This document shows positions 21,368-40,507 of a DNA stretch of 64,000 nt, piece after piece. The notes under the pieces were generated by a model. It was not told the origin of the DNA, ran no database searches, and saw nothing but the letters and a program-made list of their open reading frames with translations. The position numbers and the translations under genes are program-made. The first letter of the stretch is position 1. Every line of letters starts with the position of its first letter. The stretch is from the NCBI GenBank assembly GCA_965213685.1, contig CBDBZY010000016.1, positions 128,001 to 192,000 on the forward strand. The letters are read 5' to 3'. Source of the DNA: a bacterium. Its GTDB lineage: Bacteria > UBA8248.

Positions 21368-24300
21368 TTAAACGGCATATGGGTTAGATACATGTGTCCC
21401 GGAACCTTTTTTGTACTTGTACTTTCTTCGGCTACAAACAAAGGTGGGAGGGAGGGAGTGACAGAAGGAAGGGAGGGAAGGAGGAGATGGAAGGGAGGGA
21501 GGGAGGGAGGGAGGGAGGGAAAAAAGAGAGGGAGAAGAAAGGAGAAGGGGAAGAGGCAGACAGAAAGATCACAGTCATGTCAACACAAAGAACCATCCGT
21601 CATCAATTCCTCACCAGTATCGGACGACCTTGTAGCACTTTATCAGCAGCAAACCCTTAAGAAAGCCTACAATGAAACTAGCCACTGCGTCCCCGGTCAG
21701 TATCGCTACAGATATTCCAGTTCCTCCATCTTCACACACCCCCTCGGTGGGAGGGGGGGATGTCTGGGGTGTCTCCTCACACGGCTGTGTCGGCTGCACT
21801 GGACACTCACACTTCGTATCCTCAGTAGTCTGCTCGCTTGGCAGTGGTGGTGGTGGTGGCTGTGTTGGAGCCTCACACTCCATGTCCTCTGCTGTGGCTA
21901 TGGCTGGCTCACAGTCTGTGTCGATGGTCTTATACTCACTCACCCTAACTGAAGCCCCCCCTCTGACCCAGTCTTCCAGGTGGGTGAGCAGTGTGTCCAC
22001 ACGCACAGTGAGAGGAGCGTGCAGTTGGCCACGGAAGGTGACATACTGTTCAGCGTCAGGGAAGCAGTAGAACTCCGCCTCCTGTACTCGAGGGACGCAG
22101 CTGCACTGAGTCTGTAGGAGCTGGGTGACCTCGTCACTTATGTCAGAGAGCTTCGTGGTGTGACCGTTGGTCTGTGGGTAGGGGGGAGGGGAGGGGAGGG
22201 GGGGCAAAAGAAGAGAGAGAGGGAGAGGGAGTGGAGGAGAAGGGGGAGGAGAGATTGGTATATAGAGAAGGAATTGATCTCAAGGGAAGAGAGAGAAAGA
22301 GGAGGGGAGACAGGAGGAGGGAGTCAACATGCACGTAGCCTTACTATCCACTCTGAACAGTTCCCAACTCCACCAAGAAGTAGCTGGAACAGTGTGTCTG
22401 TCATGAGGGGAAAGGCTGGTATCACAACACAAAATATGTATTCCAGGCCCACCCCAAGTTTGCTGCCTATACCTCTAGTGCCACTGATTCACTACAGAGG
22501 GCAGAATGAATGACTCACAGTCAATGGCTGCAGTGATGGTGGCACTATCTCCTGGGCCAAACACACTGTGGGCCTCCACAGAGAAGTTGTATCTATCTCC
22601 CAGTGCGGCTGGTATTGTGAGGGAAGGGGTTTCAGTGAAGATGTTGGTGATGGCAGGTGAGTCCAGTAGCTGGTAGGTGACCTTGTACTGCAGGACAGCA
22701 TCAGTGGGGGCAGTGGGAGGAGACCAGGAGATGGCGATGCTGTCAGTGGTTACTGTGGAAACCAGCGACTGTACTGGACCCAGAGCTGTGTGTGTGTTGT
22801 GTGTGTGTGTGTGTGTGTTGTGTGTGTGTGTGTGTGTGTGTGAGTGCATGCGTGCATGTGTGTGTGTGTGTGTGTGTGTGTGTGTGTGTGTGTGTGTGTG
22901 TGTGTGTGTGTGTGTGTGTGTGTGTGCATGTGTGTGTGTGTGTGTGTGTGTGTGTGTGTGTGTGTGTGGAAGAGAGAGGGAAAAGAATCCAATGAAGGCC
23001 ACATGCTATGTCATGGTTTATTGGTTATGCAATTCTGTAATGAGCTTTGCCAACTGAATATTATTATTTCCTTCATGTTTGCTTCGCATTCCGCACACAT
23101 GTGCAACACAAATGCACACACCCTCACCTGTCATGGCAAAAACAGGATCCCCAAACAGGCACGTCTGGTTACTGCTATCAACCAGAGCCATCTGAACTGA
23201 GTAGTTAGTGAACTGATCCAGCCCCACCAAATCCGGTATCGCTGCACTGTCCTCCACGAACAGCCTCACCACATCTCCCCCTGCCACAGGGCTGTAGTGG
23301 ACCCAGCCTGCTATGGTGCCACTGTAGTGCTCTGGGGGCTCCCAGGAGAGGGAGAGGGAGGTGGAGCTGAGAGCCAGGACACTGACCTCAGGGACAATAC
23401 CTGTGGGAGAATGAGAACAGTAATGAGATCAGTGCGCCAGTGGTTACTCACATTCTACTAAAACAGCTACTAATTAAAATAATGTAACAGAGAAAAATAA
23501 ATAATATTATAATATCTATCATATGGTGTTCACATGACTGTGTGAGAAATGGCACATGGACATGAGATGTGGTCAGTGTTATAATAGTCACTGTTTATAA
23601 CAGTGACCATATCTCGTGTTATGCCCGCCACAAAATTAAGAGAGCATTGATTGCATTAATCAGAGTGAGCTCTCAATGATAGAATAACCTTGCATGATAA
23701 TCTCTGTATTTCCCTTGAAGATTTCCAATGTACGCTCACATAACAACACACACAGTGGATGAGCATACCACTCACACGGCTCAATAAAGGCTGCCACAGA
23801 CACGCCAGACACATGCACAGACTGTGCCTCCACTGCAATGGTGTAGTTGCGGCCATCAGGCACCAGGCCATGGACCAGCACTGAGGTACTGTATTCAGAG
23901 GACGCAGTGCCCGTATGGCCACCTCCTGTGTAGTGGACTATGTAGCCAGTCACTGCGGCTCCTCCAGTTGGGCTGGCCCAACTGACGTTGACTGTGGAGG
24001 AGGTGAGCTGCTCTATGGTGATGTCTGTGGGAGGGTCGGCAACTGGGGGAGGGAGGGAGGGAGGAGGGAGGGAGGGAGGGAGAGAGAGTGAGGGATGTTG
24101 AAGGGAAAATAGAGGATTGGCGGAAGGAGGGTTACCTGAGAGGGTGAGGTTGGCTGTTAGACTGGACACTCCATTCCATACCATGCAGTGGTACGTGTCT
24201 CCATCAGTCCCTCCAGTCCTGTTGGCAGTGATGGAGTAGTTGTCTCTCCCTCTCATGAGCTCCTCCAGCTCCAGAGGCCTCAGCTCCCCGAGGCCCTCCT

Positions 24301-25451
24301 CTGCTGGGCCAGTGAAGGAGCTGTTCAGGACCGTCCCATTGGTTGACCTGCAGGTCACACTGTACTGCTGAGTCAGCGGAGATGTGAGCTGGAACAGGAC
24401 CTCGAGGGCTGAGACTGAAAGGAGAGTCACATTTCAGATGTTGCAGTACAATTTTTTACTGGTACAAAACATTAAAAATTAGTACCAATAATTATTAAGT
24501 TGTTTTTTTATTATTATTATGCCTAATAGAGCTATATGTGTTTCCACTCACTGCAAGCTACTGAACATGGAATCTACAAGTAGCCCTGAGCCAGCTAACG
24601 TAGAACTTAAAATTAGATAAACGGGTTGGTGCCCTTTACAGATTCACTATAGGCCATGGATAGTAAGCCTCACGGAATGGTTCCGTGGGGCTTACTATCC
24701 ATGACTATAGACTAACAGAATATCTAACGTTTTATCTGCATGGTAGCATGAAATTTGATTTTACTTGAGCCAGCTGGAGTAAGTATAGCTGGCATCATAC
24801 AATCATGTCACGGTCCCAACGACCCAACTCACTGTTATAGTAAAGTCCCACGGACACCACGTCAACGTCCACGCCTCTCTGCACCACACAGCTGTACACG
24901 CCCTCCACGGAGTCACCTCGCTGAGGCGTGTCGCTGAGACTCCTCAGCCGCACCACCCCCTCCGACTGTCCCCTGTTCCTCTTCCAGCCGAGGACGAGGT
25001 CAGTGCTCTCCACCACGTCCGCTTCCTCTGTGCCATTGTAGTACCAGTCCCCCAGCCCTGGCGTGTCGGTTATGTTGTGACGACATATCAACGCCTGCCC
25101 GTCCTCGTCCTGCCCGTCTGGGGATGTTCCGATGTCCGTTATGAGTATTAGTCCGCTCCCGTCGGTGGGGATGCTGTCGTAACCCGGCAACCTGAGGTCC
25201 AGAGCACCTGAATGCAATGAAGAGAGAGCCAACAGTGTGTGAGAATAGCTAGGAGATGTTGGCACTGCATTGGTTATGCACAGTGTGGCACTATGCGCAC
25301 AAACGTAAACTGCAATGGAGCACACATTACGTGCGATGTATACGTTAGTCTGACGCTGCGAAGCTGACTTACCGCTAGACGCTCTGAAAAGCAACACTAC
25401 GCATGCCGCAAGAGCGAGGGTTCGCTCGACCGTCAAAACTCCAGTGAACAT
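21368..25451 (-). CDS. Type I receptor, copy 1: signal peptide, 2 Ig-like, 3 FN3, Cys-rich juxtamembrane module, TM, short tail
   Basis: MFTGVL..FRASS signal exon; ITDIG..LIC..GDWYY..EGVYSC; SVTC..YHC; FN3 exons (VNVSW..TGYIVHY, LSLSWEPP, IAISWSPP); CFP..VTFRG..EDWVRGG; TM ISVAILTGDAVASFIVGFLKGLLLI; tail CRRKYKYKKGSGTHVSNPYAV*. Confidence 0.85.
24650..24707. mobile_element. 58-bp palindromic insertion with TA target duplication
   Basis: Near-perfect hairpin. The paralogous intron at about 31031-31050 (agattcacTAaactaacaga) is the empty site. Confidence 0.8.
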
Positions 25452-38900: not shown

Positions 38901-40507
38901 ACACAGGCAGAGAAAGAAGACAAACTATTGTCCCAGGCACTAAACCTGGGCCCAGTGACTGGGAGTCCAGTGCACTGAGCACCAAGCCACCACCCCAGAC
39001 AAAAATACGTCTCCCCATTCTTCCTTATGTACTGCCAGTGGTCGTGGACTATTCAGTCAACTTCCTACTTACTTAATCCTGCGCTGTCCAAAATGATTAT
39101 TAAACCAAATTATAGAATTAAGTCACATATCAATACATACCTGAGAGGGTGAGGTTGGCTGTTAGACTGGACACTCCATTCCATACCATGCAGTGGTACG
39201 TGTCTCCATCAGTCCCTCCAGTTCTGTTGGCAGTGATGGAGTAGTTGTCTCTCCCTCTCATGAGCTCCTCCAGCTCCAGAGGCCTCAGCTCCCCGAGGCC
39301 CTCCTCTGCTGGGCCAGTGAAGGAGCTGTTCAGGACCGTCCCATTGGTTGACCTGCAGGTCACACTGTACTGCTGAGTCAGCGGAGATGTGAGCTGGAAC
39401 AGGATCTCGAGGGCTGAGACTAAACAGAGAGTCGTGTGTCAGCTAATGCAGTGTGGTTGGATAGTGTTTCAACTCACTACAGAACACTAAACGCTGACTG
39501 TTAAGTTACAACTATGCAATAATGTATGTGTAGGTATAATATGATTCTGTTCATTACAACTAACTATTAAGCTGTGCAGAGAAATAATGAATGAGAGTTA
39601 TGTTGCAGCTCACTGCACGCCACTGAGACAGTGGTCAACTGAGAAATTTAACTATAGCCTCTACACTTTAGTTCCACACATAAACCATACCCACTCATTA
39701 TGTCAATGTCCACTCGCTATAGCAATCTCTGGGCCAGCTCTAGTAGGGCTCAAAATTTCATATAAAAAAGTACCAGTAACAAAATTATTACTCTAGCTCC
39801 CTGCATATTTATGCGCGTGGGTTAGTAGTAATGGACTATGGCAGGTATGTACATTTGCAGTGCGCTAGTGCGACGACCCACGTAGTGCACTTACTATTGT
39901 AGTACAGTCCCACGGACACCACGTCAACGTCCGCGCCTCTCTGCACCACACAGCTGTACACGCCCTCCACGGAGTCGCCTCGCTGAGGCGTGTCGCTGAG
40001 ACTCCTCAGCCGCACCACGCCCTCCGCCTGTCCCCTGTTCCTCTTCCAGCCGAGGACGTTGTCAGTGCCGTCCACCACGTCCGCTTCCTCTGTGCCATTG
40101 TAGTACCAGTCCCCCAGCCCTGGCGTGTCGGTTATGTTGTGACGACATATCAACGCATCCCCGTCCTCGTCCGCCCCGCTTGGGGATGTTCCGATGTCCG
40201 TTATGAGTATTAGTCCGCTCCCGTCGGTGGGGATGTTGTCGTAACCTGGCAACAGGAGGTCCAGTGCGCCTGAATGGATAGATACAGTGTAGAGAATAAT
40301 TGGCGGCACTTGGAAAATAGGTTGATTATGCATAGTGTAGTACAAACGTAAACCACACACGAAACAAGCACATACATTATGTAGAAATAGTCGCTGAGCG
40401 ACTGAACATCGCGAGGCTGATGACTTACCGCTGGATGCTCTGAAAAGCAACGCTACGTATGCCAAAAAGGCGAGAGTTCTTCTCACCGTCCAGACTGCAC
40501 ACAACAT
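32914..40507 (-). CDS. Type I receptor, copy 3: Ig-Ig-FN3x3-TM with long Tyr-rich tail
   Basis: Signal MLCAVW..FRASS and the same exon set. Tail with KNPMY, YETL, NQAY, TTTFQPPSS repeats, KNPVY and YVYVEVEKGKD*. Confidence 0.85.
34845..35150. repeat. 22-bp minisatellite (GGGTCACGAGTGGGTGGAGCTA)n, intronic
   Basis: Direct tandem repeat. Confidence 0.9.

Follow-up and report, generated by a model that had tools for sequence, protein, structure and literature searches.

We analysed a 64,000-nucleotide (nt) stretch of DNA (the window; positions 128001-192000 of contig C16 in an assembly deposited as a bacterial genome) and found three tandem receptor genes, c1, c2, and c3, arranged like a paired-receptor system. 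The three share a distal ectodomain, which is joined in c2 and c3 to an uncharged transmembrane (TM) segment and a long tail, and in c1 to a charged TM segment and a short tail. This paired layout is real: three of the five features of paired systems that are testable here are present, and the one concerning immunoreceptor tyrosine-based inhibitory motifs (ITIMs) is absent. Our preferred reading, with a probability of roughly 0.5, is that c1 is a functional tail-less modulator, with a role as decoy or competitor likelier than one as an adaptor-coupled activator. A functional c1 would mean that the principle behind paired receptors, in which conversion keeps a single ligand-binding module uniform while the membrane and tail modules joined to it differ, arose independently in a sponge; the genes would then provide a concrete, testable locus for self/non-self or symbiont sensing in sponges, a field with few receptor candidates.

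Gene models of the three copies

Eight families of direct repeats extend across positions 20500-41500, six of them present in all three copies at 76-98% nucleotide identity. Complete models with GT-AG introns were built for c1, c2, and c3 on both haplotypes, haplotype A being the window and haplotype B a 40-kb contig (C61) that is collinear with window positions 2415-42060 at 86-98% identity, piece by piece. The original prediction, a reading of this DNA made without database searches, had claimed three tandem copies, and the repeats and complete models bear it out. The models are predictions built from maps of open reading frames (ORFs) and inspection of splice sites, and rest on homology to proteins of the demosponge Geodia barretti and on splice signals; each has nine exons on the minus strand with open frames, and every junction is GT-AG. 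The features are listed below, with lengths in amino acids (aa) where they refer to protein.

c1: 25451-21368, minus strand; 737 aa, 9 exons
c1 exons 1-3: 25451-25373, signal; 25207-24833, immunoglobulin (Ig)-like 1; 24414-24136, Ig-like 2; minus strand
c1 exons 4-6: 24042-23776, FN3-1; 23400-23128, FN3-2; 22785-22519, FN3-3; minus strand
c1 exons 7-9: 22397-22345, mini-exon; 22171-21615, stalk domain, linker, and TM; 21431-21368, short tail and stop; minus strand
c1 juxtamembrane linker: 21871-21716, minus strand; 27 aa longer than in c2 and c3, with four extra cysteines
c1 hydrophobic/TM segment: 21715-21641, minus strand; 25 aa, Asp at 21691-21689, Lys at 21658-21656
c1 last exon: 21431-21368, minus strand; 21 codons ending in NPYAV, then stop
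c2: 32058-26743, minus strand; 825 aa, 9 exons, uncharged TM, 132-aa tail (YDSV, NPVY, YVQV)
c2 exons 1-5: 32058-31968; 31527-31153; 30882-30604; 30157-29891; 29571-29299; minus strand
c2 exons 6-9: 28870-28598; 28022-27970; 27759-27284; 27133-26743; minus strand
c3: 40507-32914, minus strand; 915 aa, 9 exons, uncharged TM, 226-aa tail (NPMY, YETL, NPVY, YVEV)
c3 exons 1-5: 40507-40429; 40269-39895; 39419-39141; 38208-37942; 37531-37259; minus strand
c3 exons 6-9: 36403-36131; 34505-34453; 34317-33842; 33586-32914; minus strand
Mini-exon, 53 nt: c1 22397-22345, c2 28022-27970, c3 34505-34453; minus strand, AG/GT borders
Tandem repeat, 27 nt x 4.9: 33159-33289, minus strand; within the c3 tail exon, encoding a 9-aa Thr/Ser/Pro-rich repeat, none in c2

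An eight-exon model was rejected: the frame broke between the FN3-3 exon, which has a strong phase-1 donor at its end, and the stalk exon, which begins in phase 0. Alignment of intron 6 from the three copies returned a single conserved block, the 53-nt mini-exon, with the remainder unalignable; including it restores the frame. Differences between copies within the mini-exon are mostly synonymous, and its peptide also lies between FN3 and stalk in Geodia proteins. This exon and a Cys-rich domain of about 100 aa before the membrane had been missed in the exon structure first proposed; the c1 last exon at 21431-21368 was recovered in the complete model exactly as claimed. Residues 25-695 of c3 are collinear with the G. 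barretti protein CAI8019179.1 (36% identity, E = 5e-128), and the alignment spans every exon junction, mini-exon peptide included. This end-to-end agreement validates the predicted architecture of the family.

Concerted evolution of the shared exons

The first claim about these genes was that they share almost the same ectodomain, and this is true of Ig1, Ig2, FN3-1, and FN3-2, whose protein identity is 96.2-96.7% in all three pairs (398 aligned residues), but not of FN3-3, stalk, and linker, at 80-83%. Synonymous divergence (dS) between paralogs is 0.014-0.089 in exons 2-5, which encode the four distal domains; in the exons for the signal, FN3-3, stalk/TM, and tail and in the mini-exon it is 0.21-0.99, with saturation between the tails of c1 and c2. 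The introns that flank the near-identical exons are only 48-81% identical and differ in length by up to ten-fold, and ungapped similarity between copies stops 0-34 nt past the exon borders. In Ig2, FN3-1, and FN3-2, the two alleles of c1 differ at 1-3 sites and the paralogs at 2-5. Ig1 and FN3-1 are mosaic, haplotype-B c1 sharing states with c3 where haplotype-A c1 matches c2.

This pattern indicates that exons 2-5 are homogenised by continuing interlocus gene conversion, whose tracts do not leave the exons, since homology between the introns has been lost. The duplication itself is old, and the membrane-proximal FN3, the stalk, the TM segment, and the tail have long diverged. The cluster is thus a clean natural example of conversion tracts bounded by intron divergence. 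Between haplotypes, c3 is near-identical, with 8 nt differences in the coding sequence, 7 of them nonsynonymous and all 8 in the signal, Ig1, and Ig2 exons; the c1 alleles are the most different of the copies.

Membrane and tail modules

The cytoplasmic part of c1 measures 29 aa, which agrees with the short c1 tail that had been proposed, compared with 132 aa for c2 and 226 aa for c3. All the other elements ascribed to c2 and c3, namely uncharged TM segments and the motifs NPVY, NPMY, YDSV, YETL, and YVQV/YVEV, are present. TM and juxtamembrane residues are identical at 31 of 34 positions between c2 and c3, although the dS of that exon is 0.31. The tails follow a common order: a membrane-proximal NPxY (degenerate in c2) is followed by YET(L/V) or YDSV, then by a distal NPxY, and finally by YxxV at the C-terminus. 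The same order recurs in the Geodia protein CAI8019179.1 (P0156 in our library; NPRY, YETV, NPMY, YEDV) and in the metagenome-derived relatives P0024 and P0151. From these comparisons, c2 and c3 keep the ancestral module, a conserved uncharged TM segment followed by a motif-bearing tail. NPxY binds PTB domains and phosphorylated YxxL/V/I binds SH2 domains, and receptors for adhesion, endocytosis, and engulfment typically carry pairs of the two; such motifs do not reveal whether c2 and c3 signal positively or negatively. At the C-terminus c2 ends in Lys-Glu, c3 in Lys-Asp, and c1 in Tyr-Ala-Val (21368-21380), which we take to resemble a class II PDZ-binding C-terminus.

In c1, the 25-aa hydrophobic stretch ISVAILTGDAVASFIVGFLKGLLLI contains both of the charges first described, with Asp nine residues along it and Lys five residues short of the cytoplasmic end. 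We defined a strict test of a mid-membrane charge, with seven uncharged hydrophobic residues on each side, by which the c1 Asp lies mid-segment and nothing comparable is seen in c2 or c3. A looser version (charge at least five residues from the edge of the test window) was replaced after it flagged 83 of 150 relatives, the positives listed being mostly cytoplasmic-end Lys/Arg or a beta-strand of the stalk domain. The strict test was passed by 5 of the 150, none of which appears to be a credible TM segment, one being a stalk-domain strand and the others resembling intron read-through or low-complexity sequence. The rarity of such a charge in the family and the conversion signature both lend weight to the original observation. 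In the AlphaFold2 model of the c1 exon, a helix over exon residues 160-184 spans both charges, with block means of the predicted local distance difference test (pLDDT) of 86-96.

Only 13 of the 34 TM and juxtamembrane residues of c1 are identical to those of c2, and 11 of 34 to those of c3. The TM module of c1 is nevertheless not foreign, because the TM-coding DNA is collinear with that of c2 and c3 and differs by point substitutions. Exon 8 is 557 nt long in c1 vs 476 nt in c2 and c3, and the four linker cysteines of c1 are retained on haplotype B. The last exon of c1 has its acceptor at the position homologous to that of c2 and c3 and is itself homologous to the start of their tail exons. 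Bases 96-160, counted from the first base of this exon, match c3 beyond its stop codon (E = 2e-8); homology past the c3 stop thus begins within about 100 nt, and about 400-700 nt of tail-coding DNA has therefore been deleted in c1. Taken together, c1 is a derived member of the cluster, with an internal deletion of the tail, an acidic residue mid-helix together with a Lys, and four new linker cysteines.

It is very improbable that the 3' model of c1 is wrong, that is, that c1 uses another terminal exon with a longer tail or is made mainly as a secreted form without a TM segment. A Geodia isoform, P0154 (555 aa), does end just past the mini-exon peptide, without stalk or TM, which may reflect secreted forms in the family or intron retention in the annotation. 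In c1, however, donor and acceptor both lie at positions homologous to those of c2 and c3, and homology to the 3' untranslated region begins within about 100 nt of the stop. A long-tail alternative had been named as grounds for abandoning the prediction, and searching window positions 1-21367 with the c2 and c3 tails (tblastn) revealed no tail-like exon, the best match (E = 0.03, plus strand) being to a proline-rich part of the c2 tail.

Allelic variation and the status of c1

On haplotype A, the frame of c1 stays open over 2214 nt, free of stops and frameshifts, and all its splice sites are intact, despite a dS of 0.2-0.7 accumulated in the non-converted exons, and its FN3-3 scores above the Pfam fn3 cut-off (33 bits vs 25). 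Both alleles keep the hydrophobic helix with an acidic residue (Asp on haplotype A, Glu on haplotype B) and the Lys. Contigs from four public runs were also examined; their library kind is unrecorded, they cover introns and exons, and they come from one study and at most three samples, the source sample possibly among them. Contigs identical to the haplotype-A TM region (21535-21750) occur in all four runs. In the same contigs, a joint of 24438 to 24813 was ruled out as a splice (it ends TG..CG).

A serious, though less likely, alternative is that c1 is a decaying non-functional duplicate, in which the charges, the linker, and the divergence of FN3-3 are by-products of relaxed constraint after tail loss, and in which the distal exons look healthy only through conversion from c2 and c3. 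The open frame and intact splice sites of haplotype A, the FN3-3 score, and the hydrophobic character kept in both alleles are at odds with decay. So is the rate at which the membrane region has changed. TM and juxtamembrane sequence is the fastest-diverging part of c1 between alleles, with 13 differences in 102 nt, compared with 7 in 348 nt of the two flanking introns and 5 in 593 nt of the 3' flank. Such an excess, about six times the flanking introns, goes beyond neutral decay and is more than relaxed constraint by itself can produce. The likely sources are diversifying selection, a balanced polymorphism of long standing, or an unsampled donor of conversion tracts.

A number of observations nevertheless weigh against a functional c1, and several of them count in favour of decay. 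Haplotype-B c1 carries 4-nt and 1-nt deletions in FN3-3 that lead to a premature stop, and the 1-nt deletion (22599) is not an assembly error, because it is also present in contigs of two of the four public runs. The allelic differences in TM and juxtamembrane sequence comprise 11 nonsynonymous and 2 synonymous changes (dN/dS, the ratio of nonsynonymous to synonymous divergence, = 2.09), a pattern not expected of a conserved helix that docks an adaptor; the corresponding counts for the stalk are 5 and 13 (dN/dS = 0.11; Fisher's test between the two regions, p = 0.003). The low stalk value, which taken alone favours a functional c1, may itself be partly due to conversion, because exon 8 has 29 allelic differences and at 14 of them the haplotype-B state is that of all c2 and c3 sequences. 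The Asp/Glu difference is uninformative on selection, since the change falls on the third position of a GAN codon and so keeps acidity automatically. Intactness of exons 2-5 likewise says nothing on c1 function, because those exons have been overwritten from c2 and c3. FN3-3 of c1 has a 6-nt deletion and a paralog dN/dS of 0.62 vs c2, and no relative of the c1 exon was found in the genome or metagenome contigs searched. Two further negatives bear on signalling. No tail contains an ITIM ([SIVL]xYxx[IVL]) or an immunoreceptor tyrosine-based activation motif (ITAM). A scan for adaptors with a mid-TM charge and a downstream ITAM-like motif covered 4.9 Mb of host contigs and found none among 46104 six-frame ORFs (50 aa or longer), a low-power result, as it covered a fraction of the host genome and single-exon ORFs and would miss multi-exon adaptors.

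Proposed signalling

In the reading that we prefer, c2 and c3 would signal by tyrosine phosphorylation and recruitment of PTB and SH2 adaptors, and c1 would bind whatever they bind, without the use of their tail. Since it would share the ligand but not the tail, c1 would modulate c2 and c3 signalling, as a signalling-dead decoy or competitor or, less likely, by recruiting a partner through its charged TM segment. c1 segregates with a frameshifted allele, a trait it has in common with many activating or decoy receptors of vertebrates.

A true activating/inhibitory pair, in which c2 and c3 inhibit and c1 delivers the opposite signal with an adaptor held by the TM charge, is unlikely. The layout follows the template of such pairs in its converted ectodomain, charged TM segment, short tail, and tandem position; the extra membrane-proximal cysteines of c1 could support covalent pairing, and a null allele segregates, as in several vertebrate activating members. 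The opposite type proposed for the two kinds of tail, however, is an assumption, given the lack of ITIMs and ITAMs in the long tails; what is supported of the paired-receptor claim is the shared distal ectodomain with a charged TM segment and short tail. That the Tyr motifs are not canonical ITIMs had been anticipated, and NPxY and YxxV/L serve more often in PTB/SH2 docking and endocytosis. Vertebrate activating receptors usually carry Lys or Arg as their TM charge; the buried charge of c1 is acidic, the reverse of that polarity. The rapid evolution of the c1 TM segment and the empty adaptor scan also speak against such a pair. An extended form of the idea, a convergent poriferan paired system in which c1 shares the ligand, has opposite sign through an adaptor with a basic TM segment, and persists in a presence/null balanced polymorphism that microbes or conspecifics drive, is similarly improbable; if true, it would place the "same sensor, opposite output" logic of natural killer and myeloid receptors in a non-bilaterian animal.

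Domains and the wider family

The genes form a tandem cluster of sponge-lineage type-I membrane receptors in which a signal peptide is followed by two Ig-like and three FN3 domains, a family-specific Cys-rich alpha/beta membrane-adjacent (stalk) domain, TM segment, and tail. The proposed arrangement of two Ig and three FN3 domains is confirmed by Pfam for the FN3 domains only, which exceed the PF00041 gathering cut-off of 25 bits in the c1 exons (51.6, 26.5, and 33.0 bits) and also in c3. Ig2 falls below the cut-off for I-set (E = 0.2, 12 bits), and Ig1 has no Pfam match. Ig1 does show the Cys, Trp, and Tyr-x-Cys columns that are the hallmark of Ig-like domains, and these columns are invariant in six sequences, including Geodia and a fourth paralog; the two N-terminal domains are called Ig-like on this hallmark only. 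Searched by sequence against the Protein Data Bank (PDB), Ig1 returned nothing and Ig2 only weak matches to antibody F-strand motifs (E >= 0.078). An AlphaFold2 model of Ig1 from a six-row alignment was all-beta, with a pLDDT of 47, and unusable; the best ESM Atlas value for Ig1 (0.79, bacterial and viral clusters) was below the useful range. A word-index search with the Ig1 exon found two proteins, one identical to the window's own product and the other 94% identical to that product, and one with residues 1-240 of P0156 found no homolog.

The stalk domain, which separates FN3-3 from the TM segment and is about 100 aa long, has four to five conserved cysteines, and among 97 sequences eight Cys/Phe/Arg/Trp columns do not vary or are conserved in at least 90%. 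The c1 stalk/TM exon matched 197 library proteins at E <= 0.001, mostly over the stalk domain, and many of the 40 stalk relatives read are single-exon ORFs consisting of stalk domain, Ser/Thr-rich linker, and TM segment. The receptor family is thus uncharacterised and apparently large. AlphaFold2 modelled the exon with a mean pLDDT of 77 (80-96 over the domain) and an order of alpha-beta-beta-alpha-beta-beta. The stalk has no Pfam match, and its model had no Foldseek match in the PDB at E <= 0.001 (best E = 0.37; protocadherin-15 MAD12, E = 1.3). In the ESM Atlas its best values, 0.87 for cnidarian clusters and 0.82 for a SEA cluster, were both below the useful range. No homolog was found in a word-index search of the c3 stalk exon against longer proteins.

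Two further members were seen in the assembly. A fourth and more distant one lies at C16:118376-124373 on the minus strand, about 3.6 kb past the left edge of the window; its Ig-like domains 1 and 2 are 44-48% identical to those of c3, and by eye its ORFs suggest some five FN3-like exons plus a domain resembling the stalk, with no TM segment seen in the same ORF. A fifth, at about C64:457700-463275 on the plus strand, has by eye Ig-like and FN3 exons and then the stalk domain, followed by an uncharged TM segment and another type of tail that ends in IYEPIPGDQ, as in the relative P0025.

Comparison with known systems

The closest protein is G. barretti GBAR_LOCUS11545 (CAI8019179.1, 865 aa), with the same architecture, mini-exon peptide, stalk, uncharged TM segment, and tail motif order, but it is uncharacterised, from another species, and only 36% identical to c3. 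The Geodia cluster members examined include no tail-less, TM-charged form.

As in vertebrate pairs, one member with a charged TM segment and truncated tail appears to derive from a long-tailed form, and a null allele segregates. The cluster also resembles KIR2DL/2DS, Siglec-5/14, PIR-A/B, and CD300A/C in its tandem paralogs with a near-identical, converted ligand-binding part. Vertebrate receptors of this kind are the subject of PMC2213150 and PMC3533184, and PMC2213150 describes how activating KIR and Ly49 receptors formed recurrently from inhibitory homologues. It differs from vertebrate pairs in having no sequence relationship to them, no ITIM in the c2 and c3 tails, and homogenisation confined to exons.

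The nearest non-bilaterian case, as far as the available passages of PMC9546547 describe it, is Hydractinia Alr, a cluster of immunoglobulin-superfamily (IgSF) genes with one domain per exon, many pseudogenes, and differing tails. Alr tails, however, themselves carry ITAMs or ITIMs, and the domains of Alr are all of the Ig-like type and precede a spacer of unknown similarity; a charged-TM, tail-less counterpart is not mentioned in those passages. None of our searches revealed homology between Alr and the sponge family. Botryllus fester and uncle fester, in the parts of PMC11507803 and PMC12582321 available, are likewise linked invertebrate receptors with proposed activating and inhibitory signals, but they are chordate genes of other domain make-up whose function was inferred experimentally, whereas signalling by c1-c3 is predicted from sequence. 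The Ig-like receptors of Geodia cydonium with solved structures (PMC11926128, in part) likewise sit on the sponge cell surface and begin with a pair of Ig-like domains. By sequence, neither Ig1 nor Ig2 is matched by any PDB chain at E < 0.07, and no sponge protein is among the matches, so c1-c3 belong to a different IgSF lineage, if IgSF at all. No description of paired or TM-charged sponge receptors was found in the literature passages seen, a negative limited by the gene tables of sponge genomes, which could hold annotations of the family.

Source of the DNA and neighbouring features

The 8.0-Mb assembly that contains the window is a mixture, compared with 2.9-4.6 Mb for bacterial genomes of the same genus. 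Its 49 contigs at about 61-69% GC are essentially without dinucleotide microsatellites and look bacterial, and its 22 contigs at 33-54% GC (4.9 Mb) are nearly all microsatellite-rich, with introns confirmed in the parts examined. None of 40 related bacterial genomes carries the receptor exon. With GT-AG introns across the whole window and this mixed pattern, the contig is therefore animal host DNA, binned with its symbiont in a deposited bacterial genome bin; as a practical point, about 4.9 Mb of animal DNA is hidden there. The host is most likely a sponge, as had been suspected, because the only named relatives of the receptor proteins are G. barretti proteins, identical in architecture.

A neighbouring gene at 10708-14028 (plus strand) contains a Glu/Gly-rich stretch and weakly resembles the permuted papain-like amidase family C92, with a score below the threshold (E = 0.005, 17 bits, cut-off 27). 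Repeats are frequent around the receptor genes: a 33-nt minisatellite of 12 copies lies downstream of c1 at 20296-20690, a long trinucleotide array of 57 copies lies between c1 and c2 at 26004-26175, and several introns are filled with dinucleotide arrays.

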